From assembly GCA_038245905.1 (NCBI GenBank), contig JBBRRY010000013.1, positions 7,876 to 71,875 on the forward strand: 64,000 nt of DNA. The letters are read 5' to 3'. Made by a program: the position numbers and the translations under genes. Numbering within the stretch: the stretch's first letter is position 1; the number at the start of each line of letters is the position of its first letter. The notes beneath the pieces are model-generated. The model ran no database searches, was not told the DNA's origin, and worked only from the letters and a program-made list of their open reading frames with translations. Positions 2,322 to 60,043 of the stretch are shown piece by piece. Source of the DNA: Thermoanaerobaculia bacterium. Lineage in GTDB: Bacteria > Acidobacteriota > Thermoanaerobaculia > UBA5066.

Positions 2322-2344
2322 GGGCCTACGCTAGCATCCCCCGA

Positions 2345-5408: not shown

Positions 5409-5446
5409 CTTCGTAATACGATCCGTGGAGTCTTGGAGGAAATGCC

Positions 5447-11787: not shown

Positions 11788-11799
11788 TGGGGACGAGCG

Positions 11800-16062: not shown

Positions 16063-16108
16063 CGACGAACCGCCCGTCGAGTGTAGTCTTTGGGGCAGAG
16101 GGGATGAC

Positions 16109-22311: not shown

Positions 22312-22803
22312 GTGCTCATTCATCTTCTCCGCCACGCCGAAGCCGAGGACGTTTCGCCCACCGGAAGAGACGCGGATCGCCGTCTGACCGAGGACGGGAG
22401 GAAGCGCATGCGGTTGGTGGCGAAGGCGATCGCGAAGCTGGAGCCTGGCTACGAAGCCGTGCTCGTTTCGCCTCTCGTGCGGGCCCGGGAGACGGCAGAG
22501 CCGGTCGCGGCGGCCTGCGGATTGGGGCGCCCGATCACGGAAACGAAGAATCTCTCCCCGAATGCCGACCCCGTCGAGGTCCTCCACGAGCTCGCCCGCC
22601 TTGGGTTAGCGTCGGTTCTCCTCGTCGGGCATCAGCCCCATCTGGGCCGGCTTGCGGGGCTGCTCCTGTCGGGTCGCTCCGACCTCGAAGTCCCGATGAA
22701 GAAGGCGGCTCTGGCGGCCTTCGAGGCTTCCGCCGACCCGACTCTCGGGCTGGCCGAACTGAAGTTCCTGCTTCCCCCGCGCCTCATGGAAAAGCTTCCA
22801 TAG
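22312..22803 (+). CDS. sixA: phosphohistidine phosphatase SixA (histidine phosphatase superfamily)
   Basis: LLRHAEAE… RHG motif and …LVGHQPHLG…, 163 aa, GTG start. Confidence 0.75.
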   Translation: MLIHLLRHAEAEDVSPTGRDADRRLTEDGRKRMRLVAKAIAKLEPGYEAVLVSPLVRARETAEPVAAACGLGRPITETKNLSPNADPVEVLHELARLGLASVLLVGHQPHLGRLAGLLLSGRSDLEVPMKKAALAAFEASADPTLGLAELKFLLPPRLMEKLP

Positions 22804-22881
22804 TCATGAGTTACGGCACAAGTCGATTATTCTTGACTCGTTCCTGATAGGATCTTGGGTCCTTGGAGGATCGATTTTTCT

Positions 22882-23484
22882 ATGGGTAAAAGTGTTGCTC
22901 TCGGCTGCATCGTCCTGATCCTGGTCGGCGTCCTCGTAGTCGGCGGCATGGCGGCGGGCGCCTACAACAAGCTGAACGCCGCGGATCAGGCTGTCAGCGC
23001 GGGCTGGGCCCAGGTCGAAAACGTCTATCAGCGGCGTGCCGATCTCATCCCGAACCTCGTCGAGACCGTCAAGGGAGCGGCGAATTTCGAGAAGGACACC
23101 CTGACCCAGGTCATCCAGGCGCGCGCTTCGGCCACGCAGGTCAAGCTCGACGCGAACTCCATCAAGGACCCGGCTGCCTTCGAGAAGTTTCAGAAGGCCC
23201 AGGACGCGCTCGGGAGCGCAATCGGCCGCCTGCTCGTCAGCGTCGAGAAGTACCCGGAGCTGAAGGCGGTCCAGGGGTTCCGCGACCTGCAGGTGCAGCT
23301 CGAGGGGACAGAGAACCGCATTTCGGTCGAGCGCGGCCGGTTCAACGACATTTCGCAGGTGTATAACACGCTGCGCCGCTCGTTCCCGACCGTCATCGTC
23401 GCGAACTTCGCCGGCTTCAAGGATCGTCCGTACTTCAAGGCCGCGGAGGGCTCCGAGAAGCCTCCCCCGGTCAAGTTCAACTGA
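22882..23484 (+). CDS. lemA: LemA family protein
   Basis: An N-terminal TM helix then the LemA domain (…YNKLNAADQAVSAGWAQVENVYQRRADLIPNLVETVKG…). Start at the internal ATG (MGKSV…). Confidence 0.85.
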   Translation: MGKSVALGCIVLILVGVLVVGGMAAGAYNKLNAADQAVSAGWAQVENVYQRRADLIPNLVETVKGAANFEKDTLTQVIQARASATQVKLDANSIKDPAAFEKFQKAQDALGSAIGRLLVSVEKYPELKAVQGFRDLQVQLEGTENRISVERGRFNDISQVYNTLRRSFPTVIVANFAGFKDRPYFKAAEGSEKPPPVKFN

Positions 23485-23514
23485 GGCCGGCTCGCGGCGC
23501 TTTCGGATTCTTGA

Positions 23515-24273
23515 ATGAGTAGACGCGGCGGGGGGCGGAAAGTCTTCTTCTTCGCTTTCCTCTTTCTCCTCGCCTCCGCCGCCGCCGCGGGGCCCGTGGT
23601 GCCGCCCGCGCCGACGCGGTTCGTGACGGACAAGGCAGGCGTGATCGCGCCGGACGTCGCCGCCGGGCTCGAGACCCGCCTTTTCGACTTCGAGAAGGAA
23701 ACGTCGAACCAGTTCCTCGTCTACACGGAGACCGCCGTTCCGGAGGGAACGACGCTCGAGGAATACACCGTCGCGTGCGCGCAGGCCTGGAAGGCCGGGC
23801 AGACGCAGCGGAAGAACGGGATGATCCTGTTCGTCTTTCCCGGATCGCGGAAGGCGCGCCTCGAAGTGGGATACGGGCTCGAAGGCGCGATGCCCGATGC
23901 CCTCGCGCGTCGCGTCCTCGACGAGCAGGTGCTCCCGCGGTTCCGGACGGGCGACTACTCCGGGGGGATTTCCTCGGGCGTCTCGTCTGCGATCGCGGCC
24001 ACGAAGGGCGAGTACAAGGGGACCGGACAGGCGCGCGGGCAGCGCCGCGAACGGACCCTTCCCGGTCCGCTTCTTCTCTCTCTCCTCTTTCTCTTTTTCT
24101 TCGTGATCGTTCCGGCGCTCCGGGGCCGTCGCCGCGGGTATTCCTACATCGGTGGCGGCGGCTGGGGCTCGGGGGGATTCGGCGGGTTCGGCGGCGGAGG
24201 AGGAGGAGGCGGCGGCGGCTTCTCGGGCGGAGGCGGCTCCTTCGGCGGCGGCGGCGCGAGCGGGGACTGGTGA
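23515..24273 (+). CDS. TPM-domain protein (YgcG-like) with a TM segment and a Gly-rich C-terminal tail
   Basis: Signal peptide, then a TPM domain (…FVTDKAGVI…LVYTE…GMILFVFPGSRKARLEVGYGLEG…), then a TM helix, then a GGGGWGSGGFGGFGGGGGGGGGGFSGGGG tail. Confidence 0.8.
   Translation: MSRRGGGRKVFFFAFLFLLASAAAAGPVVPPAPTRFVTDKAGVIAPDVAAGLETRLFDFEKETSNQFLVYTETAVPEGTTLEEYTVACAQAWKAGQTQRKNGMILFVFPGSRKARLEVGYGLEGAMPDALARRVLDEQVLPRFRTGDYSGGISSGVSSAIAATKGEYKGTGQARGQRRERTLPGPLLLSLLFLFFFVIVPALRGRRRGYSYIGGGGWGSGGFGGFGGGGGGGGGGFSGGGGSFGGGGASGDW
24150..24270 (+). repeat. GGC-rich low-complexity coding repeat (Gly-rich tail of the TPM protein)
   Basis: (ggc/gga)n runs are visible in the sequence, encoding about 35 consecutive Gly/Phe/Ser residues. 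Confidence 0.8.
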
Positions 24274-24276
24274 CGC

Positions 24277-24726
24277 ATGGTGAAGAGTGAGAAGGCGAAG
24301 TCGTTCTTCGACGGCCTCGATCGCCCGGCGATCGTCGCGGCCATCAGTCGGGCTGAGGCGAAGGGTCTCGGAGAGATCCGCGTCCACCTGCATCACGGCG
24401 CCGTGAACGACGCGCGGGAGGAAGCGGAGAAGACCTTCCTGAAACTCGGAATGGACAAGACGATCCGGGGAAGCGGATGCCTCGTCTTCATCGCCCCGGA
24501 GTCACGAGCTTTCGCCGTGATCGGCGGCACGGGAATCCACGAAAAGGTTGGAGACGCGTTCTGGGCCGAGGCGCGGGATGCGGCTCGAGCCCGCTTCGCC
24601 GAGGGGAAGTTCACGGAGGGGATCGTCGCGGCAGTGGACAAGCTCGGCGACGCGCTGGCCCTCTTCTTCCCGAACACGGGGCCAAAGGACACGAACGAGC
24701 TGCCGGACGAGGTCAGCGAGGACTGA
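24277..24726 (+). CDS. TPM-domain protein (second, cytoplasmic-type; DUF477-like)
   Basis: …GEIRVHL…, …GCLVFIAPESRAFAVIGGTGIHEKVGDAFW…. It completes the LemA-TPM-TPM triad. Confidence 0.7.
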   Translation: MVKSEKAKSFFDGLDRPAIVAAISRAEAKGLGEIRVHLHHGAVNDAREEAEKTFLKLGMDKTIRGSGCLVFIAPESRAFAVIGGTGIHEKVGDAFWAEARDAARARFAEGKFTEGIVAAVDKLGDALALFFPNTGPKDTNELPDEVSED

Positions 24727-24733
24727 CGCCGCT

Positions 24734-24762
24734 TTGACAGCCGTGTCCCGGTCTGGTATTTT
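24734..24762 (+). promoter_or_regulatory. candidate sigma70 promoter of the rplU-rpmA-obg operon (TTGACA-N17-TATTTT)
   Basis: TTGACA at 24734-39, a 17-nt spacer, TATTTT at 24757-62. It lies about 37 nt upstream of the rplU SD/ATG in an AT-richer leader. Confidence 0.45.
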
Positions 24763-24798
24763 CGTCGGCCGTTTTGCTCGGGAAGTTGAGGTAAAGCC

Positions 24799-25119
24799 AT
24801 GTACGCAGTTATCCGGACGGGGGGCAAGCAGGTACGCGTCGCCGAGGGCGACGTCGTGCGTGTCGAGCGCCTCACGAAAGAGACCCTCGAGAAGGGCGCG
24901 GAGGTGTCTCTGACCGAAGTCCTCGCCATCGGCAAGGACGACGGCCTCCACCTCGGCTCCCCGCTCGTCGCGGGCGCGAAAGTGACGGGCGTCGTCGTCC
25001 GCGAGACGCGCGGGCCGAAGCTTCTCGTCTACAAGAAGAAGCGCCGGAAGGGTTTCCAGCGCACTCACGGACATCGCCAGGATCTCGTCGAGATTCGCAT
25101 CGCGTCCATCACGGTCTGA
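24799..25119 (+). CDS. rplU: 50S ribosomal protein L21
   Basis: MYAVIRTGGKQ… signature, 106 aa. Confidence 0.95.
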   Translation: MYAVIRTGGKQVRVAEGDVVRVERLTKETLEKGAEVSLTEVLAIGKDDGLHLGSPLVAGAKVTGVVVRETRGPKLLVYKKKRRKGFQRTHGHRQDLVEIRIASITV

Positions 25120-25140
25120 TCAGGCGGAGACGAAAACAAA

Positions 25141-25413
25141 ATGGCACACAAAAAAGGTCAGGGTTCGTCCCGCAACGGGCGCGACAGCAACAGCCAGCGC
25201 CTCGGCGTGAAGCGTTTTGCCGGTCAGCTCGTGTCGGGCGGTTCGATCCTCGTCCGGCAGCGCGGCACGCCCCTGAAGCCGGGACTGAACGTCGGCCGCG
25301 CCAAGGACGATTCCCTGTTCGCGAAGGTCGACGGGATCGTGAACTTCCACGACAAGGGCCGGCTCGGCCGCTACGTCTCGATCACCCCCGCGGCCCTCGT
25401 CGCCGAAAAGTAA
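25141..25413 (+). CDS. rpmA: 50S ribosomal protein L27
   Basis: [16 protein letters not shown]… signature, 90 aa. Confidence 0.95.
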
Positions 25414-25422
25414 GCCGCTCTT

Positions 25423-26490
25423 TTGTTCATCGACGAAGCGGTCATCCACGTCGCCGGGGGCGACGGTGGTAATGGCTGTGTCGCCATGCGGCGCGAGAAG
25501 TTCGTCCCACGGGGCGGGCCCTCGGGCGGGGACGGTGGAGACGGCGGCAGCGTCACGCTCGTCGCGGACCGCGGACTCAACACGCTCTATCCGTTCCGTT
25601 TCCAGAGGCGTTTCCCCGCGGGCCGGGGAGGCCACGGGAAGGGCAACAACCGCCACGGAAAAAATGGGGCGGATCTCCCGGTCTCGGTGCCCGTCGGAAC
25701 GGTCGTGCGCGTCCGCGACACGGGGGAGATCCTCGGCGACCTCGTCGAGGAGGGACAGACGCTGCTCGTGGCCCCCGGTGGAAAAGGCGGAAAGGGAAAC
25801 GCACGCTTCGCGACGTCGACGAATCGCACGCCGCGGCGCGCGGATCCGGGCGGCGAGGGCGTCCAGCTCGAGCTCGCGCTCGAGCTGAAGCTTCTCGCGG
25901 ACGTGGCCCTCGTCGGGCTGCCGAATGCGGGCAAGTCGACACTCATCGCCGCGATCTCGGCCGCTCGCCCGAAGATCGCCGATTACCCCTTTACGACACT
26001 CGTGCCGAATCTCGGGGTCGTCTCGTGGGAGCGGTTCCGGACGTTCGTCGCGGCGGACGTGCCGGGCCTCATCGAGGGCGCCCACGAAGGCCACGGCCTC
26101 GGAATCCGGTTCCTGAAGCATGTCGAAAGGTCGCGCCTCCTCGTCCACCTCGTGGACGCCGCGGCGCTCGACGCGGACGACACCGAGCAGAACGCGGAAG
26201 CGACGATCGCGACGATCGAGCACGAGCTCCAGTCCTTCCAGCCCGAGCTCGCGGAGCGCGAACGCGTCCTCGTGGCCACGAAGGAGGACGCGGCAACACC
26301 GGACCAGGTCGATGCGGTCCGTGCCGCCGCGAAGCGCCGGGGCCTCGCCTTCTTCGCGATTTCGGCCGCGGCGCGCCACGGGCTCGACGCCCTCGTCCCG
26401 CATCTCGGCACGCGGCTCGACGCGCTCGCGGCGTCCGCGGTGTCCACCGCGCCCGCCGTTCCCGCCTCGTCCACGCCGGTCGCGTCCTGA
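25423..26490 (+). CDS. obg: GTPase Obg/CgtA
   Basis: Obg fold with Gly-rich GGxGGxGG repeats, then the G-domain GLPNAGKSTL… and DVPGLIEGA. TTG start. Confidence 0.9.
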   Translation: MFIDEAVIHVAGGDGGNGCVAMRREKFVPRGGPSGGDGGDGGSVTLVADRGLNTLYPFRFQRRFPAGRGGHGKGNNRHGKNGADLPVSVPVGTVVRVRDTGEILGDLVEEGQTLLVAPGGKGGKGNARFATSTNRTPRRADPGGEGVQLELALELKLLADVALVGLPNAGKSTLIAAISAARPKIADYPFTTLVPNLGVVSWERFRTFVAADVPGLIEGAHEGHGLGIRFLKHVERSRLLVHLVDAAALDADDTEQNAEATIATIEHELQSFQPELAERERVLVATKEDAATPDQVDAVRAAAKRRGLAFFAISAAARHGLDALVPHLGTRLDALAASAVSTAPAVPASSTPVAS

Positions 26491-26492
26491 AC

Positions 26493-27101
26493 ATGCGCAT
26501 CGGCGTTTACGGGGGCTCGTTCGATCCGGTGCACTACGGGCATCTCGTGCCCGTCGAGGAGGCGCGGCAGAGGCTTCTGCTCGACGAAATCCTCTTCGTG
26601 CCGGCGTTCCAACCGCCGCACAAGCCGTCCGGAACGTCGGCCCCGTCTCACCATCGCTTCGCGATGCTCGCGCTCGCGCTGGAGACGTATCCCGCCTTCC
26701 GCCTGACCGACTTCGAAGTCGCGCGCGGCGGGACCACGTACACGATCGAGACCCTCCGGCACCTGCGCGCGGCGCGGGCCGACGCCGAGTTCGTGCTCGT
26801 GCTCGGGTCCGACTCTCTCGCCGCGATCACGACGTGGCGCTCGTGGCAGGAGATTCTCGACGAGTTCCCGCTCGCCGTCGTCGAGCGGGAGGGCTTTCCG
26901 GCCGGAGTGCTCGCGCGCGAGCTGCCGCAGGCGATCTCCGGCCGGTTCGGCGAGTCGATTTTCTTCGCGGGCAACGCACCGGTTACAATTTCGTCCACGT
27001 GGTTAAGGCGCGCCATCCCAGCGGGAGAGGACCTGAGCGGAAGTCTCCCGGCGAACGTCGCCGCGTATCTCCGAAGGCACGCCCTGTACCGGGTCCCGTA
27101 A
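26493..27101 (+). CDS. nadD: nicotinate-nucleotide adenylyltransferase
   Basis: MRIGVYGGSFDPVHYGHL (the H/TxGH motif), 202 aa. The six-frame track only shows it as the tail of a longer spurious ORF. Confidence 0.85.
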   Translation: MRIGVYGGSFDPVHYGHLVPVEEARQRLLLDEILFVPAFQPPHKPSGTSAPSHHRFAMLALALETYPAFRLTDFEVARGGTTYTIETLRHLRAARADAEFVLVLGSDSLAAITTWRSWQEILDEFPLAVVEREGFPAGVLARELPQAISGRFGESIFFAGNAPVTISSTWLRRAIPAGEDLSGSLPANVAAYLRRHALYRVP

Positions 27102-27289
27102 AGCACGCCGTTCCACAGGTCGGACCCATCGACGACCTCATCGAGGCGACGCTGCAGCGGACGGGGGCGCGATCCGGAGCACGGGCCGCGGCCGCGGCCG
27201 CCGCGGCGTCCCAGGACGCGCCCGAGAAGTCCCGTGCTTCCGCCGACCCGGCAATCGACGAGCGCCTGACCGAACAGCTCAAGAAGGGT

Positions 27290-27607
27290 GTGGCCGCGCT
27301 GCTCGACAAGAAGGCCGAAAAGCTGGTCGTCCTGAACCTGCAGGGCCTCACGACGATCTCCGACTACTTCGTCCTCGCCACGGCGGGGAGTGACCGGCAA
27401 GCCCAGGCTCTTTCCGACGCCGTCGAGCTGGCCCTCAAGGCCGTGGGCCGCAGGCCGCTCTCGATCGAGGGCTACTCCTCAGCGACCTGGATCCTCCTCG
27501 ACTACGGCGACGTGGTGTTCCACGTCTTCCACGACGAGGCGCGCCGCTTCTACGGCCTCGAGAGGCTGTGGGGAGACGCTCCGGACGCCACGGCGGCGTT
27601 CCGCTAA
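27290..27607 (+). CDS. rsfS: ribosomal silencing factor RsfS (Iojap)
   Basis: …LNLQGLTTISDYFVLATAGSDRQAQALSDAV… and …WILLDYGDVVFHVFHDEARRFYGLERLW match RsfS end to end. GTG start chosen at 27290; it could start a few codons further upstream. Confidence 0.75.
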   Translation: MAALLDKKAEKLVVLNLQGLTTISDYFVLATAGSDRQAQALSDAVELALKAVGRRPLSIEGYSSATWILLDYGDVVFHVFHDEARRFYGLERLWGDAPDATAAFR

Positions 27608-27615
27608 GGTATCGC

Positions 27616-28554
27616 GTGGCGGGACGTGCCGCGTCGTCCGCCCTCTTCGTGACGCGCCACCGCGGCCTCAGGGAGCAGCTCAGGCGGCTCCAACGCGCGG
27701 TCGACTCGGCCAACACGGTTCTCCTCCTCGGAGCGCCTGGCACGGGGAAGGACCGGCTCGCGCGCCTCCTGCACGAGCGCTCGACGCGCGCCGGAGAGCC
27801 TTTCGTGCGCGTGGATCTCGCGGCCGTATCGGACGATCTCTTCGAGAGCGAGCTCTTCGGGCACGAGCGCGGCGCGTTCACGGGCGCCGTCTCGGGCAAG
27901 CCCGGCCTCCTCGAAGGCGCCGGCGAGGGCACGCTCTACCTCGACCGGGTCGACGCGCTGTCGCTCCGGGCCCAGGGAAAGCTCCTTCGCGTCGTCGAGG
28001 AGCGTCTCGTGCGTCGCGTCGGAGGCACCCGTCTCCTGCCGCTCAAGGCGCGCCTCGTGGCCTCGGCCGGTCCCGACCTGCCGCGTCAGGCGCGCGCGGG
28101 GACGTTCCGGGAGGATCTCTACTACCGGCTCGCGGTCGTCACGGTGAGCCTGCCTCCGCTGGTCGAGCGCCGCGAGGACCTTCTTTCCGCGGCGCGTTCT
28201 CTCGCGAAAGCCGGCGGCGGCCCGGCCGTGTTCACGGCGGCCGCACGGCGCGTGATCCTGGGGCACGCCTGGCGCGGCAACTTCCGCGAACTCGAGAACG
28301 TCGTTCGAAGAGCCGCGAACGAAGCGCTCGCGGACAGGGCTGGCGCGATCGACGCCGCGCACCTGAAGCTCGCCGGTCCGTCGGACCCCGAGGCGCTTCT
28401 TCACGCGGCCGCGCACGCGCGCTGGTCGCTCCGGCAGCTCACGGGCGCCTACATCTCCCTCATCCTGGACGAGGCGGGTGGAAACGTGGCGGAGGCGGCG
28501 CGCCGCCTCGGGGTGGCCCGCAAGACGCTCTACGCGCGACGGACGCGCTCGTGA
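27616..28554 (+). CDS. sigma54-interacting AAA+ activator lacking any N-terminal sensor/receiver domain (PspF-like architecture) with a Fis-type HTH
   Basis: Walker A LLGAPGTGKDRLA, GAFTGA loop (ERGAFTGAV), Walker B/R-finger region, and a C-terminal HTH …GNVAEAARRLGVARKTLYARR. The GTG start at 27616 leaves only ~30 aa ahead of the AAA core. Confidence 0.75.
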   Translation: MAGRAASSALFVTRHRGLREQLRRLQRAVDSANTVLLLGAPGTGKDRLARLLHERSTRAGEPFVRVDLAAVSDDLFESELFGHERGAFTGAVSGKPGLLEGAGEGTLYLDRVDALSLRAQGKLLRVVEERLVRRVGGTRLLPLKARLVASAGPDLPRQARAGTFREDLYYRLAVVTVSLPPLVERREDLLSAARSLAKAGGGPAVFTAAARRVILGHAWRGNFRELENVVRRAANEALADRAGAIDAAHLKLAGPSDPEALLHAAAHARWSLRQLTGAYISLILDEAGGNVAEAARRLGVARKTLYARRTRS

Positions 28555-29021
28555 GAATCCGGTTTCTCTTCGTCGGTAAGAGCGACGAGGCCGAATACGC
28601 CCGGGGGATCGAGCGCTACGTCGCGCGGATCGGCCGCTTCGCCGCGTGCGACGTCGTCGTCGTCAAGGACGAAAAGCCGGGCCCGAAACCCGACGCCGCC
28701 CGCATTCGCGCAAAGGAGGCGGAGCGCATCCTCGCGGCTCTTTCGCCGCGCGATCTCCTCGTGCTCGTAGACGAGAAGGGCAAGGAGAAAACGAGCGCGG
28801 AATTCGCGGTCGACCTCCGCTCCTGGCTCGACGCGTCTCCCTCGGCGGTGGTCTTCGCCGTGGGCGGGGCGTTCGGTCTGGACCCCGTCTTGCGCCCTCG
28901 GGCGCGTGCTATCCTCCCGCTTTCCCGGATGACCCTGCCTCATCAGCTGGCTCGGTTGTTCCTGACGGAACAGGTTTACCGGGCGACCGCGGCGCATTCC
29001 GGCGTCGCCTATTCCAAGTGA
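28551..29021 (+). CDS. rlmH: 23S rRNA (pseudouridine1915-N3)-methyltransferase RlmH
   Basis: SPOUT RlmH motifs (…IRFLFVGK…, …LLVLVDEKGKE…S.EFA…, …VFAVGGAFGL…), GTG start overlapping the previous stop. Confidence 0.8.
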   Translation: MRIRFLFVGKSDEAEYARGIERYVARIGRFAACDVVVVKDEKPGPKPDAARIRAKEAERILAALSPRDLLVLVDEKGKEKTSAEFAVDLRSWLDASPSAVVFAVGGAFGLDPVLRPRARAILPLSRMTLPHQLARLFLTEQVYRATAAHSGVAYSK

Positions 29022-29041
29022 CCTCGAGGGAGACGACCAGC

Positions 29042-29431
29042 ATGTCACCTAAAGCCGCCGCGATGCCCTCCAAGTCCCTGAAGAAGGAAGCCGGCGACAA
29101 GGTCAGGAAGCGTCTCCTCGCCAAGCGCGACGAGCTCGTTCAGGATCTCGCGAAGAACCGTCAAGTCTCCGACGAGACGATTGAAGAGTCGGCGCAGGAC
29201 ATGGCCGACCGCGCGACGTCCGCTTACACGAAAGAGTTTGCGTATTCGCTCTCCGAGAGCGAACGCAAGATCCTGCTTCTCATCGAGGAAGCGCTCGGGC
29301 GGCTCGAGACCGGGACCTATGGGACCTGCGTTCACTGCTCCCAGGTCGTCCAGGAGAAGCGTATCGAGGCGGTTCCCTGGGCGCGCCACTGCCTGGACTG
29401 CCAGGAACTTCAGGACAAGGGGCTGCTCTAG
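29042..29431 (+). CDS. DksA/TraR-family C4 zinc-finger protein
   Basis: A coiled-coil region then CVHCSQVV…CLDC (CxxC-x17-CxxC), 129 aa. Confidence 0.7.
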   Translation: MSPKAAAMPSKSLKKEAGDKVRKRLLAKRDELVQDLAKNRQVSDETIEESAQDMADRATSAYTKEFAYSLSESERKILLLIEEALGRLETGTYGTCVHCSQVVQEKRIEAVPWARHCLDCQELQDKGLL

Positions 29432-29457
29432 CCCCCTCTCCCGCATAGTATTGAAAG

Positions 29458-30903
29458 GTGACACGTCCCGATCCCTTCGCGGCTCTCGCGCCGCTCCTCG
29501 CGTCGGCGCGGACGACGCCTCTCCACCCGATCCTCTTCCTGTCCGGAGACGACGACTGGATCGTGGTCGAGGGCGCGCGCCGCGTGACGGCGGCATTCCA
29601 GGAAGCCTTCCCGGAGGGAGAGGTCTCGACGTACGAGGCGACGGGCGAAGGCGTGAAGGAAGCCGTGGCGGACGCCGCCACCGTCGCGCTCTTCTCGACG
29701 AACCGGCTCGTGGTTCTCGAAGCGACGGAGCTGTTCCGCGGCAAGGGCCTCACGGCGGAAGAGGTCGATGCGCTCCTCGACGAAGCCGACGAGGCGCGGG
29801 ACGACGCGCGCGTCCGCGCGCGCCTCGCGCGTAAGGCGCACGCGCTCGCCGGGGCGGCCGGCGTCGCCGTCGGCGACGATCCCGAAGACGCCGCGCGCCG
29901 AATCGCCGGCCGGGTGAAGAGGGCGGATCGGGCCGGGGAGCTTGCCGCGCTTCTCGCCCTCCTCCCCGCGCCGGAGGAAGGCGCCGAGACGGCGCTCGAC
30001 CGGCTCCTGGACTTCGCCGTGCGCGCGGGCGCGTCCGACAACGTCCTTCTCGTTCATGCGATCACGCCCGACGCGCAGCACCGCGCGACACAGGGCCTGA
30101 GACGCGCGGCGCGTACCGCGGACCTGTCGGTGCCCGACGAACCCGCGCGGCGCGCGCGCCTCGCCGCGCTCGGTCTCGAACGGGCCATCGATCGCAAGGC
30201 GCTCGTCGAGTCCGAGGTCTTCGAGCTTCTCTCGGGCCGGGGCCGGCTCGCCGCGCGGCCCTTTCTCTCGGACCTCGACCGCCTCATCGACTCCGCTGCC
30301 GGGCCGCGCGTGACCGCCGAAGAGGCCGCGCGACAGGTCGCCGACGAGAGCCGCGAATACGGATCGGACTTCGTCGAGGCCGTCGCGAAGCGCGACCTTG
30401 GAGAGGCGCTGCGCCTCCTCGCGAAGCTCCTCTCGGGAGCCAGCTTCACGGCGTTCCGCCCGTGGGGCGGCAAGGAGGACACGCCCTCGGCGAAGAAGGG
30501 GCCGCGCGGCGAGGCCGCGTTTTTCCCGCTCCTCGGCCTCCTCGCGGCCGAGATCAGGAGGATGCTCGCGCTGCGCGCGGCCCTGGACGAACGGGCGACG
30601 CCTTCCTCTTCGTCTCAAGCGCCGCGCCGCGCGGATTACCGCGGATTCGTGGATCGCATTCTCCCGGTTCTGAAGGCCGTCCGCCCCGGTTTCCCGCCGC
30701 TGCCTCTCGACGCCCACCCGTTCGTTCTCCACAAGGCCTACCTCGCGGCCCTCGGCTGGACGGCGGACGACCTCAAGGGCGCGCTCATGGGGCTGGAGGC
30801 GATCGACCGGGGCGTGAAGAGCGGGGCGGGCACGGGCCCCGAGCTTCTCGAGACCTGGCTTCTCTCCCAGCTCCACTCTCTCGGGCGGACGGCGACAGGC
30901 TAA
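29458..30903 (+). CDS. holA: probable DNA polymerase III delta subunit (HolA-like), extended form
   Basis: N-terminus …PILFLSGDDDWIVVEGARRV…ATVALFSTNRLVVLEATELF… matches the delta N-terminal domain pattern. It sits in the holA-nadD-rsfS-rlmH neighbourhood conserved in proteobacteria. The length of 481 aa is longer than canonical. Confidence 0.5.
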   Translation: MTRPDPFAALAPLLASARTTPLHPILFLSGDDDWIVVEGARRVTAAFQEAFPEGEVSTYEATGEGVKEAVADAATVALFSTNRLVVLEATELFRGKGLTAEEVDALLDEADEARDDARVRARLARKAHALAGAAGVAVGDDPEDAARRIAGRVKRADRAGELAALLALLPAPEEGAETALDRLLDFAVRAGASDNVLLVHAITPDAQHRATQGLRRAARTADLSVPDEPARRARLAALGLERAIDRKALVESEVFELLSGRGRLAARPFLSDLDRLIDSAAGPRVTAEEAARQVADESREYGSDFVEAVAKRDLGEALRLLAKLLSGASFTAFRPWGGKEDTPSAKKGPRGEAAFFPLLGLLAAEIRRMLALRAALDERATPSSSSQAPRRADYRGFVDRILPVLKAVRPGFPPLPLDAHPFVLHKAYLAALGWTADDLKGALMGLEAIDRGVKSGAGTGPELLETWLLSQLHSLGRTATG

Positions 30904-30913
30904 GATCTCCTTC

Positions 30914-33900
30914 TTGGTGAGCGAGCCGACCGGCGACCCGCGCGTGCGCTTCGACCGCCGCGACCGCATTTTCATCGTCCTCTGCCTGCTCACGATCGTG
31001 GGCGGCGCCCTCGTCTTCCGGGCCGGGTTTTCGAGAGCCTTTCCGGAGGCGTCGATCGACTTCAAGGTCACGCGCGAGGAAGCCATTCGCCGTGGCGCCG
31101 AGGCGCTTCGCGCGCGCGGCTTCTCGCTCGACGGCGCCCGCGCTCTCGCGATCTTCGACGGCGACGACGAGGCGAAGGTCTATCTCGAGCGGACTCTCGG
31201 CCTCGAGAAGGCGAACCCGGTCTTCAGGGCGACGGTTCCCGTCTGGCGCTGGTCGGTGCGATGGGTCCGCCCGCTCGAGAAGCTCGAATACCGGGCGGCG
31301 GTCTCTCCGGACGGACGGCTCCTCGCCATCCGCAGGATCCTGCCGGAAAAGGAGGCCGCACCCGATCCGGGCGAGGCAACGGCGCGCTCCCTGGCGGAGG
31401 CGGAGATCCGGGAGCTGCGCGGGATCGACCCGTCGACGCTTCGATTCATCGAGACGACGGTCGAGAAGCGCCCCGCGCGCGTCGACCGCACATTCATCTG
31501 GGAGTCGAACACGATCCGATTCGGGGATGCCGCTCTTCGCTACCTCGTCGAGATGCAGGGGGACCGCGTCGGGCGCTCGTCGCTCCACTTCGAGGTCCCG
31601 GAGAAATGGCGTCGCGACTACGAGACGCTCCGCTCGAAGAACCTCGCGGCGGGCACGGTCGCCACGCTGGGCCTTCTCCTCACGGCGCTCGCCGTCCTCG
31701 TCGTCTTCCTCCAGCGCGTCCGCCGCAAGGACGTGAAGTGGAAGTGGGCGCTCGCGTTCGGGGGGACGGGAGCGCTTCTGCAGCTCCTCGCGTCGCTCAA
31801 CGAGATGCCGATCCGTCTGTTCGACTACGAGACCTCGGACGGCTGGGCGGGGTTCGTCGCGAAGTCGGTGGCGGGCGACGTGGGCGCCGCCGTGAGCCTC
31901 GGCGTGGTGCTGCTCCTTCTCGTCGCGGCGGGCGAGCCGCTCTACCGGGAGCGCTATCCGGACAAGCCGGCGCTCGGCCGCATCCTGTCTCTCCGCGGAA
32001 TCGCTTCGAAGCGCTTCTTCCGAGGGCTCCTCCTCGGATACGCGATGACGGCATTCTTCTTCGCGTACCAGATCATCTTCTACATCGTGGCCGCGCACTT
32101 CGACGCGTGGGCTCCCGCCGACGTGCCGTACTCGAACCTGCTCGGCACCTCGTTCCCGTGGCTCGGCGTCCTCCTGATGGGGTTCGTGCCCGCGACGACC
32201 GAGGAGTTCTCGTCGCGGATGTTCTCGATCTCCTTCGCGGAGCGGTTCGTGCCGCGATGGGCCGCGGTCGTGGTGCCGGCGCTCATCTGGGGCTTCGCGC
32301 ACAGCACGTATCCGAACCAGCCTTTCTACATCCGAGGCGTCGAGGTGGGGTTCGCGGGAATCCTCATCGGCTTCGTGATGCTGAAGGCGGACATCTTCCC
32401 GCTCCTCGTGTGGCACTTCACGGTCGACGCCGTCTACACGGCGCTCCTTCTCCTGCGCTCGTCGGATCCGTACTTCGTCGTGTCCGGCGCCGCTGCGTCT
32501 CTCGTGCTCCTGCTTCCGCTCGCCGTGTCGCTCGCACTCTATTTCCGCCGCGGCGGATTTACGCCCGACGGGGAATTCACGAACGCGACGGTCGGTACCG
32601 CACTGGCGCCTCCGCACGTCGAGGAGGCCGTCCCTTCGGGTTGCGCGCCGCCGAGCGCGCTGAGCCCCGTGCGCGTGTGTTCCGCTCTCGCGCTCGCACT
32701 CCTTGCGTTCCTCGCGGCGCGATTCGTTCTGCCGCGGACAGGGCCATGGGAAGACGTGAGGGTCGCGGTCGACCGGAATGGAGCGAAGGCCGCCGCGGAC
32801 GCCTGGCTGAGGACGGCGGGCGACGACCCCGCGGGCTACCTGTCGGTGGCGACGACGGCCACTGCGCTCCCGGCCCTCGAGGACCCCTCCGACACGGGCG
32901 CGGGCCTCGTCCCGTATGGCGAATCCGATCTCGCGGAGCGTTGGCTGCTCGAACGGGGCGGCATGCCGCTCTTCACGAAGTGGGCGACGGCAATCTTTCC
33001 GGGGCCGGTCTGGAACGTCCGCTACGTGCGCGCGCTCGATGAGCACGGCGCGAACGTCGCGGTGGACGGGCGGACGGGCCGCGTCGTCGGCTTCCGCCGC
33101 TCCTTCCCGGAGGCCGAGGCCGGCGCGAGCCCCGACGAGCCGGCGGCTCGCGCGAAGGCGTCGACGGTCCTTTCCTCGTTCGGCTTCGGCCCGCTCACCT
33201 GGGATGTCGTGTCGTCGAAGAGCGAGGCGCGCAAGGCTCGAAAAGACACGCTCGTCGTCTCCGAGTCGCGTCTCGAGCACGCCGGCGAAGCGGTGAGACG
33301 CGCCGTCACCGGGTTCGCGGGCGACGTTCCGTCGCTCTTCGCCACGGCCCTGAAGCTGCCGGAGGACTGGGTGCGCTCCCGGGACAAGTCGACGGGCGCG
33401 ACGTATGCCGCCATCGCGTGGAAGATCCTCGCGTGGGGAACCCTCGTGGGGCTTCTCGTCGTCGAGCTCATTCGTCTCGCGCGCGCCGGGTCGATTCCGT
33501 GGCGGAACTCTCTCAGGCTCGCGGCGCTTCTCGCGCTGCCGGCGATTCTCTCCCGCTTCCTCTCGCTCCCTCTCATCCTCGCGCGCTACGACTCGCAGTT
33601 CTCGATGCCGGTCTTCGCGGTCGTCGCGGGAGTCGGTCTGCTCGTGGGCGTGCTCGTCTCCTACGGCATCGCCCTCCTCGCGGTGGCCCTCGTCCTCGCC
33701 GTAAAGTCCGACGCGGCCGGCGCGTTCCGGCGCGGGGGCGCGGACGGCCCCTGGGCCCTCGCCGCGGGCGCGGGCGCGACCGTTCTCGTCCTCGGCGTGC
33801 GCGCACTCGCGCATGGTGTCTCGGCGGCGTTCCCTCTCGAGGCAGGCGTCCCGGGCTTCTCGTTTCCGCAGGGAGTCGAGACGATCCTGCCCGCTGCCAT

Positions 33901-34327
33901 CGTGCTCGACGGCATCGTCCTTCGCGTCCTTCTCTTCGGGGGCGCCGCCGCCTTCCTCGCGCTTCTCCTCCGCGACGTCTTGAAGAAGCCGGCCCTTCGC
34001 GTGGGTCTTCTTGCGCTCGCCGTCGGCGTCTTCGCGCCGTTCGGCGCTCGGACGGCCGGCGAGCTCGCGGTGCCTGTCTTCGCGGGCGCGCTGACCGCGC
34101 TCGCCGCGGTCGCGGCGATCACCGTGTTCCTGCGCGACGACCCGCGCGCATACGTTTTCGCGGCGGCGCTCCTCGCGGCGGCCGGAGCAGGCGCCGACCT
34201 CGTGTCGAGTGGCGTGACGCCGTGGGTGTGGAACGGCGTCATCGTGCTCGCGGTCGTGGCAGTCTTCGTCGCCCGCTTCGGTTTCGACCGGCCCCGGCCG
34301 GAAGCGCCCGCCCTGCCGGTGACCTAG
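30914..34327 (+). CDS. giant polytopic membrane protein: CPBP (CAAX/Abi) intramembrane protease core plus two PepSY-like soluble modules and a C-terminal TM bundle
   Basis: CPBP motifs EEFSSRMF, FAHST and HFTVDAVY lie on consecutive TM helices. Soluble segments at about aa 40-230 and 600-800 share a PepSY-like end motif (VWRWSVRWVRPLEKLEYRAAVSPDGRLLAIRRILPE versus VWNVRYVRALDEHGANVAVDGRTGRVVGFRRSFPE). There are more than 20 hydrophobic helices overall. The opposite-strand 1190-aa ORF is R-rich junk. Confidence 0.65.
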   Translation: MVSEPTGDPRVRFDRRDRIFIVLCLLTIVGGALVFRAGFSRAFPEASIDFKVTREEAIRRGAEALRARGFSLDGARALAIFDGDDEAKVYLERTLGLEKANPVFRATVPVWRWSVRWVRPLEKLEYRAAVSPDGRLLAIRRILPEKEAAPDPGEATARSLAEAEIRELRGIDPSTLRFIETTVEKRPARVDRTFIWESNTIRFGDAALRYLVEMQGDRVGRSSLHFEVPEKWRRDYETLRSKNLAAGTVATLGLLLTALAVLVVFLQRVRRKDVKWKWALAFGGTGALLQLLASLNEMPIRLFDYETSDGWAGFVAKSVAGDVGAAVSLGVVLLLLVAAGEPLYRERYPDKPALGRILSLRGIASKRFFRGLLLGYAMTAFFFAYQIIFYIVAAHFDAWAPADVPYSNLLGTSFPWLGVLLMGFVPATTEEFSSRMFSISFAERFVPRWAAVVVPALIWGFAHSTYPNQPFYIRGVEVGFAGILIGFVMLKADIFPLLVWHFTVDAVYTALLLLRSSDPYFVVSGAAASLVLLLPLAVSLALYFRRGGFTPDGEFTNATVGTALAPPHVEEAVPSGCAPPSALSPVRVCSALALALLAFLAARFVLPRTGPWEDVRVAVDRNGAKAAADAWLRTAGDDPAGYLSVATTATALPALEDPSDTGAGLVPYGESDLAERWLLERGGMPLFTKWATAIFPGPVWNVRYVRALDEHGANVAVDGRTGRVVGFRRSFPEAEAGASPDEPAARAKASTVLSSFGFGPLTWDVVSSKSEARKARKDTLVVSESRLEHAGEAVRRAVTGFAGDVPSLFATALKLPEDWVRSRDKSTGATYAAIAWKILAWGTLVGLLVVELIRLARAGSIPWRNSLRLAALLALPAILSRFLSLPLILARYDSQFSMPVFAVVAGVGLLVGVLVSYGIALLAVALVLAVKSDAAGAFRRGGADGPWALAAGAGATVLVLGVRALAHGVSAAFPLEAGVPGFSFPQGVETILPAAIVLDGIVLRVLLFGGAAAFLALLLRDVLKKPALRVGLLALAVGVFAPFGARTAGELAVPVFAGALTALAAVAAITVFLRDDPRAYVFAAALLAAAGAGADLVSSGVTPWVWNGVIVLAVVAVFVARFGFDRPRPEAPALPVT

Positions 34328-35190
34328 CCCCGCACTCCGGCCTTCCGCCACTCCCACTCGGCGAGGCGTTCGCGTGCGCCGAGGCCGATCGCGCGGTGCA
34401 GGTCGACGAGGAGGCGCGACGCTTCGGGGTCCTTGAAGGGCGGCGGCCCGAGGCGTGTGAGCACGGCCTCCGGATGATCCGGGGGCGCATAGGACCCGCG
34501 GAGCGCGGCGACCGGCTCGCCCGGACGGTAGAAGAGCTCGGGTCTCTCGAGGACGTGCCGGGGGAGCGACTCCGGCGGGTCAGTCGTGTCGCGGGGCGCG
34601 GCCGGGTCGGGTGCGTCGGGCACGGACCTGCGTTCGGGACGGGTGCGCGCGCGCTGCAGGCCCGCGAGGAGCTCTTCTCGGGGAACGCCACGGAGCAGGA
34701 ACACGAGGAACGGGTCGTCCTGGAGGCGGTCGCCGAGCAGGACGGCGAGGGCGCCGGCATGCGCACACGGCCCTGGAACCTCCGCGCACGAGCACCGGAA
34801 GACGACATCGTCAGCGTCGACCGGAAGGAGCGTGCGCCCGGTGCCCTGGAAGGCGCCCTCCACGTCTTCGGGCAGGCGGCCCGCGAGGAGATCGGCGGCG
34901 AATCGCGCCCGCGCGGCCATCGCCTTCAGGACACGGCGCTTGGCGATGGTCGCGAGCGAGTGCAGGGAAAGCGACGTCTCTTCGACGTGGCCGTCCGTTG
35001 CCTTGACGTCCGCGCGCGCGCCGGCGCGCCCGATCTCGAGCGACGTGACGGCGCCCGAGAGGGCGATCGCGCGCCCGTCCTGGAGCGCCTCCTCCCAGCC
35101 GAGCGCGGCGAGGCGCGCGAGGAAGCGGAAGGCCCACCCGCTCTCGGGCGGCTTCGCGCGGGGGAGAAGTGTCTTTCGGCGGCGCGGCAT
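34324..35190 (-). CDS. SWIM zinc-finger domain protein
   Basis: CxCx(n)CxH SWIM signature (…VVFRCSCAEVPGPCAHAGALA…). ATG at 35190, giving 288 aa; the upstream ORF extension is in-frame junk overlapping the SNF2 gene. Its start overlaps the SNF2 stop (TGATG). Confidence 0.7.
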   Translation of the reverse strand: MPRRRKTLLPRAKPPESGWAFRFLARLAALGWEEALQDGRAIALSGAVTSLEIGRAGARADVKATDGHVEETSLSLHSLATIAKRRVLKAMAARARFAADLLAGRLPEDVEGAFQGTGRTLLPVDADDVVFRCSCAEVPGPCAHAGALAVLLGDRLQDDPFLVFLLRGVPREELLAGLQRARTRPERRSVPDAPDPAAPRDTTDPPESLPRHVLERPELFYRPGEPVAALRGSYAPPDHPEAVLTRLGPPPFKDPEASRLLVDLHRAIGLGARERLAEWEWRKAGVRG

Positions 35191-38100
35191 CAATGGCCTC
35201 CGTCCGTTTCGACGGCGTTCGTGTCGAGCGCGACGAGCTCCGTGAGCTGCTCGTCCGACAGGGTCGCGATCCACTGCTCCCCGGCACCCACGATCGAGCG
35301 CGCGAGCGCCTTCTTCTCCTCGATCATCCGGTCGATGCGCTCCTCGAGCGTGCCGCGGCAGACGAACTTGTGGACCTGGACGTGCTGCGTCTGGCCGATC
35401 CGGAACGCGCGGTCGGTCGCCTGCTCCTCGACCGCGGGATTCCACCAGCGGTCCACGTGGAACACGTGCGAGGCGCGCGTCAGGTTGAGGCCCGTGCCTC
35501 CCGCGCGCAGCGATAGAACGAAGAATGGGGGCGGATCCTCGTCCTCCTGGAAGCGCCGAACCATTTCCGTCCGCGTGTGGCGGGGGACCGCGCCGTGGAG
35601 AAACAGAACCTCGCAGCCGAAGCGCTCTTTCAATTCGGCGACGAGGAGGTGGCCCATCTCGGCGAACTGCGTGAAGAGCAGGGCCGGGCTCCTCTCGGCG
35701 AGCGTCTCCTCGCACATCTCGACGAGGCGGGCGACCTTCGCCGAGCGGCCGTCGCGCCGCCCGTCCCCCAGGAACAGCGCGGGGTGGTCGCAGATCTGCT
35801 TGAGCCTGAGCAGGAGGAGGAGAATCTTCGCCTTCCGGCTCCGCCGATTCGCCCGCCCGATCCCCGAGAGCAGGGAGCGCGTCGTCGCCTTGTAGAGTGC
35901 CGCCTGTTCGCGCGTCAGGCCGACGAGCTCCTTCGTCTCGATCTTCTCGGGAAGGTCGGGAACGACGCCGGGATCGGTCTTGGCGCGGCGGAGCAGGAAC
36001 GGGCCCGTGACGTGGCGCAGGCGGGCGGCCGCGGACGGGTCGCTGTGCCGCTCGATCGGAAGCGAAAAATTGCGCCGGAAGGCTTCGTCCGTGCCGAGGA
36101 GCCCGGGGTTCAGGAAATCGAAGATGGACTTCAGCTCGGAGAGGCGGTTCTCGACGGGCGTGCCCGTGAGGGCGGCGCGGCGGTGGGCATGCAGAGAGCG
36201 CGCGGCACGCGACTGCGCGGCCGCCGGGTTCTTGATGTTCTGCGCCTCGTCGAGCGCGAGGTATTCCCAGGTGACGCCCGACAGAAGCGCGCGGTCGCGG
36301 TGCACGAGGGCATACGTCGTGACGAGGAGGTCCACCTCTTCGAGGAGTTCCTGGAACGCCGCCCCGCTCGCGCGGCCGGCTCCGTGGTGTACGACGACAC
36401 GGAGCTGCGGCGCGAAGCGTTCGGCTTCACGGACCCAGTTCTCGGCGACGGACGTGGGGCAGACGAGGAGGGACGGCCCGATGCGCTCCCCCGCATCGCG
36501 TGCCGTGAGCAGCGTGGCGAGGAACTGGATCGTCTTGCCGAGTCCCATGTCGTCCGCGAGACACGCGCCGAGGCCCCGCGAGAGCAGGAAGCGCAACCAC
36601 CCCACACCTCGCATCTGATATGGGCGTAGCGTGCCCGTCAGGCCGTGCGGCGCCGCGTATCCGGCGATCTCGCGCCGCGCGACTTCCGGGTCGAGCAGGC
36701 GGCCGACCCATCCCTCGCCCCCCACGCCGTCGATGAGCACGTCGTCGCGCTCGCTGTCGAGCCCGCCCGCGAGCCGAAGCAGCTCGCCGAGCGTCGTGCG
36801 GCCTCCGGGGCGGCGGTCCAGGAGGCGCCGCGCCCTCTCGAGGTTCTCCTTGTCGAGAAGGACCCACTCTCCCTGGATTTCGACGAGCGGAATCTGGCGC
36901 GCGGCCAGGTCCTCGAATTCGTGAGGAGTCAGGAGCGCGTCGCCCACGGCCACGCGCCAGTCGAAGTCGACGAGCGCGTCGAGGCCGAAGCGCACGACGG
37001 GCGCGTCCGCTTCGCCCGGTCCGGGCGCGCGCCCCACGAGCTTGAGGGCGACGCGTGCGAGGCTTCCGCCACCGGGCAGGCGGACGGCGATGCCGGCCTC
37101 TCCAAGGCGCGGCGCCTCGTCGGAGAGAAAGCGCCAGGCCTCGTCGGGGGACAGGATGACGCCCGAGGGATGCCGCTCTTCGAGGCTCCGGGCGACCGGC
37201 CTGGAAAGCGCCGCGGCGGTCCCGAGGCGCGCGAGGAGCACGTCCTGCGGATTCGTGAACAGGCGCCCGCGGCGCCGGATCGAACCCTCGGTCAGGGCCC
37301 AGATCTCCTCGGCTTCGAGCGAGACTTCCGGGCTCTCTCCGGATTCGAGGACGTACGCGAGTGCGAACGGGCCGCCGGCCTCGGCCGGAGGCACGACGCG
37401 GATCCCGAGCCTGAGCAGACTCTCGGGCAGCGGATCGAGGAGCGGAAGACTCCACTCCTTGAGACGCGCGAGGACGCCGGGCTCGAGCACCGAGGTGGCG
37501 GGGGCCGCGAGCGCGGCGACGACCTCGGCCTCGGGACCGTCGCCCGCGCGGCGGCGCTCTTCTGGAAGGACATCCCTGAGGACGTCGCGCGCCGCCGCAT
37601 CCACGGCGTCGTCGAGGAAGCTCAACAGCAGTCCGCGTGCGGCGGGGAGCGCGCCGTCGGGCCCGGGGCGCGTGCCCGAAGGCAGGACCGCGCGCGATAC
37701 GGGCGGCATCGCTTCGGCGAGGCGGCGCAGCCGCTCCCTCTCGTGGGCGTCGTCGAGAACCGGGCGCCAGCGCGGGTGGGCGCCGTCCGTGCCGGGCGCG
37801 ACACGCCGACGGAGCAGGAGGTCGAACACCCAGCGCGCGACTTCCGCCCAGTAGTCGAGGTCGTCGCCGGCAGACACGGAGAGGGGCCGCGCGCGGAGGG
37901 CGGCAGGGAGCGCGAGAAGCGTTTCGAGCGCGTGCGCCATCGGGAGGACGAGGGCGGGGACCTCGTACGCCCGGAGGACGGCCGTGAAGGGCGCCGTATA
38001 GTCCGCCGGCTCCCGGAGGGCCGGTGCGGACGGAACGGGACGCCCGTGCACAGCGGGGGTGGCGAGCGTGAGCGACGTGCGCTCGGCGTGCACGGAGACG

Positions 38101-59754: not shown

Positions 59755-59794
59755 GGGAGGCGGACGCAGGCGACCCGAACGGGCCGCCGACGCC

Positions 59795-60043
59795 TCAAGC
59801 GGTGGTGGCGGGCTCGGGCTTGGACTTGGCTGCCGCGGGCTTCGGCGTGTTCGCGTAACGCTTCTGGAAACGCTCGACGCGGCCGGCCGTGTCGACGAGC
59901 TTGGACTTGCCCGTGAAGAACGGGTGGCAATTGGAGCAGATTTCGAGACGGAGCTCGGTCTTCGTGCTCTTCGTCTTCCACGTGGTTCCGCACGCGCAGT
60001 GCACGTCGACGTCGTGGTACTCGGGGTGGATCTTTTCCTTCAT
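59795..60043 (-). CDS. rpmE: 50S ribosomal protein L31
   Basis: [19 protein letters not shown]…[11 protein letters not shown] (Zn-ribbon type A). The ATG at 60043 was preferred (GGAGAAG SD) over the GTG at 60058. Confidence 0.9.

Follow-up and report, generated by a model that had tools for sequence, protein, structure and literature searches.

The stretch of DNA described here, which we call the window, comprises 64,000 nucleotides of contig JBBRRY010000013.1 from a Thermoanaerobaculia bacterium of the phylum Acidobacteriota. It carries a string of genes in the order rplU-rpmA-obg-nadD-rsfS-bEBP-rlmH-dksA-like-holA-like, followed by an Rce1-like gene. The subject of this report is the sixth member of this string, an intact open reading frame of 312 codons on the forward strand (27616–28554), coding for a sensor-less paralogue of the bacterial enhancer-binding proteins (bEBPs), the class of sigma-54 activators of Pfam family PF00158. 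The bEBPs are textbook AAA+ motors, which need ATP hydrolysis to start transcription. The reading frame begins with a GTG codon at 27616, right after the rsfS stop codon (TAA, 27605–27607), as a first-pass annotation of the sequence had noted; the gap is 8 nucleotides rather than the 9 given there. At its other end, the stop codon (TGA, 28552–28554) overlaps the rlmH start codon (GTG, 28551–28553) in a four-nucleotide GTGA (28551–28554), as had also been described.

The protein is made up of an AAA+ domain, a lid and a DNA-binding domain. The AAA+ domain (Sigma54_activat, PF00158) covers residues 13–177, with an E-value of 1.9e-52 and 177.8 bits against a cut-off of 20.2, and accounts for positions 3–167 of the 168 in the profile. 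It is followed by AAA_lid_14 (residues 196–251) and by HTH_8, a Fis-type helix-turn-helix (HTH; residues 277–309, 28444–28542, 31.5 bits against a cut-off of 22). The AAA+ domain begins after only about 12 residues and Walker A after 38, which leaves no room for a sensor domain; the homologues are all 300–350 amino acids long and none has such a domain, so that the earlier description as a sensor-less bEBP holds. The comparison with PspF, the E. coli phage shock activator, that had been made along with it is correct for the architecture, as PspF has the same layout of AAA+ and C-terminal HTH domains without an N-terminal sensor. It does not extend to orthology: the PspF equivalog model TIGR02974 scores 191.9 bits on our protein, against a cut-off of 443.55, and no NCBIfam equivalog reaches its cut-off.

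In its AAA+ domain the protein is 40–45% identical to the AAA+ domains of NtrC1 and PspF. An AlphaFold2 model of the 312 residues (predicted local distance difference test, pLDDT, 82.9) has ZraR, NtrC1, NtrX and PspF as its best matches in the PDB by Foldseek, with entries 3m0e and 4qnm among the structural matches and Brucella NtrX as a close one. NtrC1 and ZraR are the best matches in sequence and fold (4l4u, E 7.8e-55), ZraR (1ojl) being the top Foldseek match over the AAA+ and DNA-binding domains. Both share the Fis-type HTH with the window protein, but they also have a receiver domain, the Asp-Glu pair of Walker B and the sensor I Asn, none of which is present in it. A possible FleQ-like cyclic di-GMP site at the amino-terminus was considered by comparison with FleQ, and dropped: counted from Walker A, the residues L-F-A-T-R-H-R of the family fall in line with the ordinary L-I-G-x-S start of an AAA+ domain.

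The active-site motifs were placed by a gapless BLASTP alignment to PspF (45% identity over the AAA+ domain), in which residue n of the window protein corresponds to PspF residue n-3 through the motifs. The PspF sequence used for it reproduces the published numbering (K42, N64, F85, E108, N149, R162 and R168); a HMMER alignment to NtrC1 puts the motifs in the same columns. Walker A, G-A-P-G-T-G-K-D, is formed by residues 39–46 (27730–27753), with K45 at the position of PspF K42. The GAFTGA sequence of the sigma-54-contacting L1 loop is at residues 86–91 (27871–27888), F88 and T89 being equivalent to PspF F85 and T86. The Arg fingers R165 and R171, equivalent to PspF R162 and R168, are found in the sequence F-R-E-D-L-Y-Y-R (28108–28128), and sensor II reads W-R-G-N-F-R (28273–28287), with R224 equivalent to PspF R227.

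Walker B, by contrast with these motifs, is degenerate. Residues 107–113 (27934–27954) read L-Y-L-D-R-V-D, in which the Walker B Asp is kept (D110, PspF D107), but the position of the catalytic PspF E108 is taken by R111 (codon cgg, 27946–27948). D67 (27814–27816) stands where PspF has the Asn of the glutamate switch, N64, and at the sensor I position A151-G152 (28066–28071) replaces PspF T148-N149. Of the features that characterise bEBPs, the PF00158 domain, GAFTGA, Walker A, the Arg fingers, the sensor II Arg and the Fis-type HTH are thus present, while the hhhhDE pattern of Walker B reads L-Y-L-D-R and the sensor I Asn is a glycine. The first-pass annotation was right about GAFTGA and the Fis-type HTH, but the ATPase site beside them is not canonical; its term "activator" is justified as to family membership, and doubtful as to activation, given the loss of the catalytic Glu and of the sensor I Asn.

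Close homologues form more than 100 clusters at 52–97% identity, and those with a name come from metagenome-assembled genomes of Thermoanaerobaculia or Acidobacteriota. When 1.8 billion representatives were searched exhaustively with a profile, the family came down to about two clusters at the 50% identity level (P0047, 538 bits, and P0123, 447 bits), below which the scores blended into generic bEBPs at about 300 bits; the family is therefore small and restricted to its lineage. A profile scan of genome contigs yielded, among the matches listed, 80 loci, 79 of them with generic bEBP paralogues and one, L001, with an orthologue. Two background sets were used for comparison with the family: 75 generic bEBPs in unrelated loci, reused from the contig scan, and 127 AAA+ domains (125 of them readable) of the nearest non-family representatives.

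The motifs could be read in 104 clusters of the family, and in these residue 111 is Arg in 92, His in six and Glu in six. The clusters with Arg or His, to which the window protein belongs, are referred to as clade A; those with Glu form a sister clade of the most distant members (52–55% identity, including loci L083 and L084), which occupies the same locus. Residue 113 varies together with residue 111: Arg or His is always accompanied by Asp or Glu at 113, and Glu always by Ser. The sensor I position is unconstrained in clade A, where it can be Gly, Ala, Ser, Asp, Pro, Thr, Glu or Leu, whereas the Glu clade has Arg there. Other residues also set the two clades apart in a fixed manner, among them Arg118 and Arg220, the latter standing in clade A in place of the canonical Pro of the WPGN sequence beside sensor II.

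The remainder of the nucleotide-binding and contact machinery is conserved throughout the family. GAFTGA or GSFTGA is present in 104 of 104 clusters and the flanking ESELFGHE is invariant over the whole range of 52–97% identity. G39, G42, T43, G44, K45 and D46 of Walker A are invariant, the GxGKD sequence and D67 are universal, and the Arg fingers R165 and R171 and R224 of sensor II do not vary. Nine residues of the HTH, G288, G289, N290, R296, R297, L298, G299, R302 and K303, are invariant, the recognition helix included. In the background sets, Asp-Glu is found in 69 of the 75 generic bEBPs and in 117 of the 127 nearest AAA+ domains, and Asp-Arg in none of either; sensor I of the 127 domains is mainly Asn (92), with His in 18 and Arg in eight.

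The loss of two catalytic residues might be taken as a sign of decay, the gene being a non-functional remnant kept only by its place in an essential operon. We give this explanation almost no credence. More than 100 clusters have an unbroken frame, the family alignment has 88 invariant columns and a mean column identity of 65%, and the divergence of the gene keeps pace with that of obg, rsfS and dksA. The restriction of residue 111 to Arg or His in clade A also indicates that a basic residue is selected there, which argues against simple decay. On conservation, a pseudogene was rejected.

About 8% of the nearest representatives outside the family also lack the Asp-Glu pair. Several short (about 310–330 residues), sensor-less, bEBP-like metagenome proteins (P0151, P0156, P0158, P0159, P0167, P0170 and P0247) have a degenerate Walker B of the type E-R, D-D, D-A, D-Q or N-E, many of them with GAFTDA rather than GAFTGA. 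Naturally hydrolysis-deficient relatives of the bEBPs may be commoner than has been assumed.

Nine other loci with the gene were compared with the window. Six were found via the bEBP itself (L081, 73% identity; L001, 69%; L082, 60%; L085, 59%; L083, 55%; L084, 54%) and three (L086, L087 and L088) were reached independently via RsfS, in a search in which the 120 proteins among the matches listed were all at least 77% identical. The bEBP gene lies directly after rsfS, in the rplU-rpmA-obg-nadD-rsfS string, in all nine, and hence in 10 of 10 loci when the window is included; conservation in related genomes, which had been put forward as a check, is thus borne out. A dksA-like gene follows it in all eight other loci that extend far enough. 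The rlmH gene is present between the two in the window and in four of the nine other loci (L001, L081, L086 and L088), and absent from four (L082, L084, L085 and L087), among them one in which RsfS is 81% identical (L087). The loci without rlmH have a spacer of about 95–145 nucleotides before dksA, with sigma-70-like -10 elements and no -24/-12 element. The earlier view of a gene inserted between rsfS and rlmH is therefore accurate as to position, but rlmH is a variable neighbour: what is fixed in the lineage is the placement after rsfS, with rsfS and the dksA-like gene as the partners that stay constant. The identities of the neighbours fall in step with that of the bEBP (in L084, 60% for obg, 58% for rsfS, 54% for the bEBP and 50% for dksA), which points to a gene passed on vertically along with its operon.

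Laboratory work on PspF and NtrC1 has used Walker B mutants to tell the engaging of sigma-54 apart from its remodelling. The catalytic Walker B residue of PspF, E108, forms with N64 the glutamate switch, which couples the nucleotide to the position of the GAFTGA (L1) loop (PMC4132715, PMC7175178). All E108 substitutions tested (to Ala, Asp and Gln) cripple hydrolysis. In the E108Q protein, ATPase activity is below 1%, ATP is bound 32-fold more tightly and hexamers are constitutive. The protein stably engages the closed complex and lifts the sigma-54 block, but it melts duplex DNA inefficiently, and its authors considered it unlikely to sustain transcription at the ATP concentrations of the cell (PMC4132715). 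Tighter ATP binding, constitutive rings and stable engagement of sigma-54 RNA polymerase without turnover characterise the laboratory Walker B mutants PspF E108Q and NtrC1 E239A (PMC4132715). The change in our family affects the same position as PspF E108Q and NtrC1 E239A, and the window protein is predicted to behave in a similar way. It differs from the engineered single substitutions in being natural and fixed, with Arg or His as the new residue, and in being accompanied by a covarying Asp at +2, the loss of sensor I and the change from Pro to Arg beside sensor II.

From this comparison we tentatively favour the view that the window protein is an ATP-binding, hydrolysis-impaired engager of sigma-54 RNA polymerase, present at a dose linked to growth through its operon and acting at sites chosen by its HTH, as a blocker or a slow activator. 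With Walker A Lys, Arg fingers and sensor II invariant, it should by homology bind ATP and oligomerise, and it should hydrolyse ATP poorly. That GAFTGA does not vary speaks for sigma-54 as its continuing partner. An ordinary ATPase as the ancestor is suggested by the sister clade, which has Asp-Glu in the protein encoded at this locus. The restriction of residue 111 to Arg or His beside the invariant Asp67 suggests a permanent salt bridge instead of the Asn-Glu contact; the AlphaFold2 model confirms the fold only.

The mechanism that we propose would start with binding of ATP and assembly, with a turnover that is very slow or nil. The Asp67-Arg111 pair would replace the nucleotide-gated Asn-Glu switch and keep the GAFTGA loop in an "engaged" position, making of the assembled protein a binding switch on sigma-54 RNA polymerase at the sites selected by the HTH. 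The outcome would be either that closed complexes are held and productive activators blocked, or a slow, single-turnover activation. Part of the sigma-54 regulon could in this way be coupled to the growth and ribosome status of the cell, alongside Obg, RsfS and the DksA-like factor.

Several observations weigh against this proposal. A search for TGGCAC-N5-TTGCW in the window and the orthologous loci gave nothing conserved in or near the operon, and with up to two mismatches allowed, the window contains seven matches where 9.96 are expected from a dinucleotide shuffle. A regular expression for the RpoN box found no match in the 64-kb window or in 88 fetched loci. An Asp at the switch position is also found in some ordinary Asp-Glu bEBPs of the background set, so that the pairing of Asp67 with Arg111 is a deduction from the homology mapping. 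Finally, Asp113, which covaries with Arg111, could have become the catalytic base in place of the Glu, leaving the ATPase intact.

The last of these points leads to an explanation that we consider somewhat unlikely, according to which the protein is an ordinary, constitutive activator of the PspF type, its ATPase working via Asp113 or another residue, its sigma-54 promoter or promoters distant, and its activity controlled by expression level or by a partner in trans. The strict covariation of Arg or His at 111 with Asp or Glu at 113 fits a relocated catalytic carboxylate; GAFTGA, Walker A, both Arg fingers, sensor II and the HTH are all invariant, the sister clade retains Asp-Glu at the same locus, and sensor-less bEBPs controlled in trans, of which PspF is one, are a known class. 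Such an activator would have to work with the sensor I Asn lost as well and its position unconstrained, with an Arg for the conserved Pro of WPGN, with an Asp-Arg pair seen in none of the nearest bEBPs examined, and in the face of the effect that every tested change of E108 has in PspF (PMC4132715). A candidate partner such as PspA was not found in the window reading frames scanned, in which the PspA, RpoN and HPF families have no match, in accordance with the earlier statement that the window contains no psp genes; the gene lists of the nine related loci contain no PspA-type regulator or psp operon either. PspF and the window protein have the equivalents of K42, R162, R168 and R227 and the GAFTGA sequence in common, but they differ at E108, N64 and T148-N149 of PspF (Arg, Asp and Ala-Gly in the window protein), and the window gene lies in a ribosome-maturation operon, without psp genes nearby, rather than beside a divergent target operon. 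If the ATPase is intact, the finding shrinks to a PspF-like activator in an unusual place.

A bolder form of the hydrolysis-impaired reading, which we regard as unlikely, takes the pocket to have been rebuilt. The fixed, Walker B-dead bEBP, with Arg111, Asp113, Arg118, Arg220 and no sensor I, would here be a sensor of nucleotide state and not a motor, its always-raised GAFTGA loop clamping sigma-54 RNA polymerase and repressing or gating part of the regulon according to the growth and energy status of the cell. Obg, RsfS and the DksA-like factor would belong with it to a single module. Within this scheme, the extra arginines might read an alarmone such as (p)ppGpp (guanosine tetra- or pentaphosphate) instead of ATP.

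The invariance of the Arg fingers, which act across subunits, would also suit a subunit that cannot hydrolyse and functions solely as part of mixed rings, contributing DNA targeting or sigma-54 contacts while an active bEBP partner hydrolyses. There is a precedent in HrpR and HrpS, which depend on each other. PspF rings in which defective subunits alternate are still able to open DNA (PMC4132715), and the genome encodes at least one other bEBP (61824–63758). That protein, though, is a response regulator of the standard kind, encoded at a distance of 33 kb, and a paralogue is neither adjacent nor co-conserved in any of the 10 loci; we give the mixed-ring arrangement little probability.

The absence of a sigma-54 promoter signal near the gene, in an operon served by sigma-70-type promoters, raises a further alternative, a DNA-binding regulator independent of sigma-54, comparable to TyrR, NtrX, VpsR and FleQ at sigma-70 promoters, in which the nucleotide sets the oligomeric state and which could, for example, auto-regulate the operon. 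Relatives of the bEBPs without ATPase-driven activation exist, among them NtrX, a good structural match; NtrX, TyrR, VpsR and the NtrC proteins of Caulobacter and Rhodobacter use the AAA+ scaffold as a nucleotide-dependent regulator and not as a motor, in which the window protein may resemble them. NtrX, TyrR, VpsR and alphaproteobacterial NtrC work with sigma-70 and are not known to keep GAFTGA, and no sigma-54-independent bEBP relative is known to have kept this motif. Our family differs from that group in that GAFTGA is invariant, and the invariance of GAFTGA/GSFTGA together with ESELFGHE over 52–97% identity is hard to explain without a contact with sigma-54. We give this alternative less probability still than the mixed rings.

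Some -24/-12-like sequences were met in the course of the promoter search. Those in the 3' end of rlmH (window 28879, L081 11336) differ in position and were taken as chance matches. The best one in the window, TGGTACGCGTCCTGCA (16031–16046, forward strand), agrees at nine of 11 positions and lies about 60 nucleotides upstream of an open frame (16108–18252, 714 amino acids, no Pfam match), near the 5' end of a divergent PHP-domain gene.

The gene order from obg to the holA-like gene, given in the first-pass annotation, was confirmed by Pfam. All members of the string are on the forward strand. It starts with rplU (24799–25119) and rpmA (25141–25413), coding for ribosomal proteins L21 and L27, which were identified by their position and by tblastn matches to the proteins annotated as Ribosomal_L21p and Ribosomal_L27 by Pfam in the orthologous loci. 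The Obg GTPase gene follows at 25423–26490 (GTP1_OBG, E 6.4e-57, and MMR_HSR1), and then a nadD-type nicotinate-nucleotide adenylyltransferase gene (26493–27101, ATG at 26493; CTP_transf_like, E 2.5e-25) and rsfS, for the ribosome silencing factor (27110–27607, start uncertain; RsfS, E 2.4e-30, domain from GTG 27290). Downstream of the bEBP gene lie rlmH, for a SPOUT methyltransferase (28551–29021; SPOUT_MTase, E 2.1e-40), and the gene for a DksA/TraR-family zinc-finger protein of 129 amino acids (29042–29431; zf-dskA_traR, E 3.1e-08, and DksA_N). As read from the translation, the DksA-like protein has the D-x-x-D-x-A tip motif, in the form DMADRA.

A sigma-70-type promoter is found upstream of rplU (24734–24762, forward strand), with TTGACA, a 17-nucleotide spacer and a TG-extended TATTTT. 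It is the only promoter-like match within 22500–35200, and its TTGAC and the T-A...T of the -10 element are invariant at the same place in seven orthologous loci. Leaving aside the nadD-rsfS junction, intergenic distances in the string range from -4 to 26 nucleotides, and a search of the forward strand found no convincing terminator-like site inside it. The whole string is apparently driven from the conserved promoter upstream of rplU, and co-transcription of the bEBP gene with the ribosomal-protein and ribosome-maturation genes is a well-supported inference, in line with the co-expression that had been proposed from the close packing. With transcription apparently from the rplU promoter, the amount of the bEBP should follow the ribosome-biogenesis operon and not a dedicated signal.

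A genomic link between sigma-54 and ribosome silencing in stationary phase is already known: rpoN has hpf, the gene for the ribosome hibernation promoting factor, as a conserved neighbour. The output of sigma-54 depends on ppGpp and a protein that targets RNA polymerase (PMC3162934). The two cases differ in that the sigma factor gene itself lies beside hpf there, while here a bEBP paralogue lies beside rsfS, obg and the dksA-like gene. The rpoN-hpf linkage and the dependence on ppGpp make the obg/rsfS/dksA-like context suggestive by analogy, and the fixed place between rsfS and the dksA-like gene, with obg and the L21 and L27 genes, is a second case in which sigma-54 control and ribosome silencing are connected in the genome. 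The family looks like a natural version of the Walker B mutant experiment, with the contact loop kept and the catalytic Glu exchanged for a selected basic residue, and its Asp-Arg and Asp-Glu clades at one locus make a ready pair for testing engagement without hydrolysis in the cell. The literature searched describes no natural bEBP with GAFTGA and without the Walker B Glu, and none linked to rsfS, nor any other connection of rsfS with sigma-54.

In rsfS, the uncertainty of the start stems from the conserved amino-terminus. RsfS homologues begin with M/V-K-H-P-V-P-Q, and at the corresponding place the window has GTA (27098–27100), overlapping the nadD TAA. The first canonical in-frame start is the GTG at 27290, which is preceded by a ribosome-binding site, AAGAAGG, coincides with the beginning of the Pfam RsfS domain and would give a protein of 105 amino acids. 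The N-terminal extension that is conserved in the homologues may be untranslated in this genome, or a non-canonical start may be used.

The holA-like gene (29458–30903, forward strand) codes for 481 amino acids, which is long for a DNA polymerase III delta subunit, and its match to DNA_pol3_delta is weak: the N-terminal Pfam match is barely above its cut-off (22.2 against 21 bits), the C-terminal one is below (20.4 against 27), and the orthologues have no precomputed Pfam match. Its assignment as HolA is tentative. The Rce1-like gene (30914–34327, forward strand) encodes a multi-pass membrane protein of 1137 amino acids, the sole Pfam match of which is to Rce1-like CAAX proteases, at residues 414–507. 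It lies directly after the holA-like gene in L084 and L086–L088 as well, so that the order of these two genes at the tail of the string is kept in four of the other loci (L084, L086, L087 and L088).

Directly upstream of rplU is a LemA-TPM-TPM gene trio (22837–24726, forward strand), which is kept in L081, L083, L084 and L086–L088; the first of the two TPM proteins (23515–24273) ends in a long Gly-rich C-terminal tail (GGGGWGSGGFGGFGGGGGGGGGGFSGGGG...). The second bEBP of the window, encoded on the reverse strand (61824–63758), is canonical, with a REC domain, a sigma-54 AAA+ domain (GSFTGA, Walker B F-F-D-E-I, sensor I A-A-T-N) and HTH_8, and gives indirect support for a sigma-54 system in this genome. 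Beside it are genes for an FHA-GAF-SpoIIE (PP2C phosphatase) protein (59917–61821, forward strand) and a peptide chain release factor (58672–60039, reverse strand). Elsewhere, the window contains an HflX GTPase gene at 2291–3499 and, at 5417–12813 on the forward strand, a carbohydrate-metabolism block with genes for transaldolase, transketolase, glucokinase and fructose-1,6-bisphosphatase, in which a stretch at 8545–10533 lies between transketolase and glucokinase.

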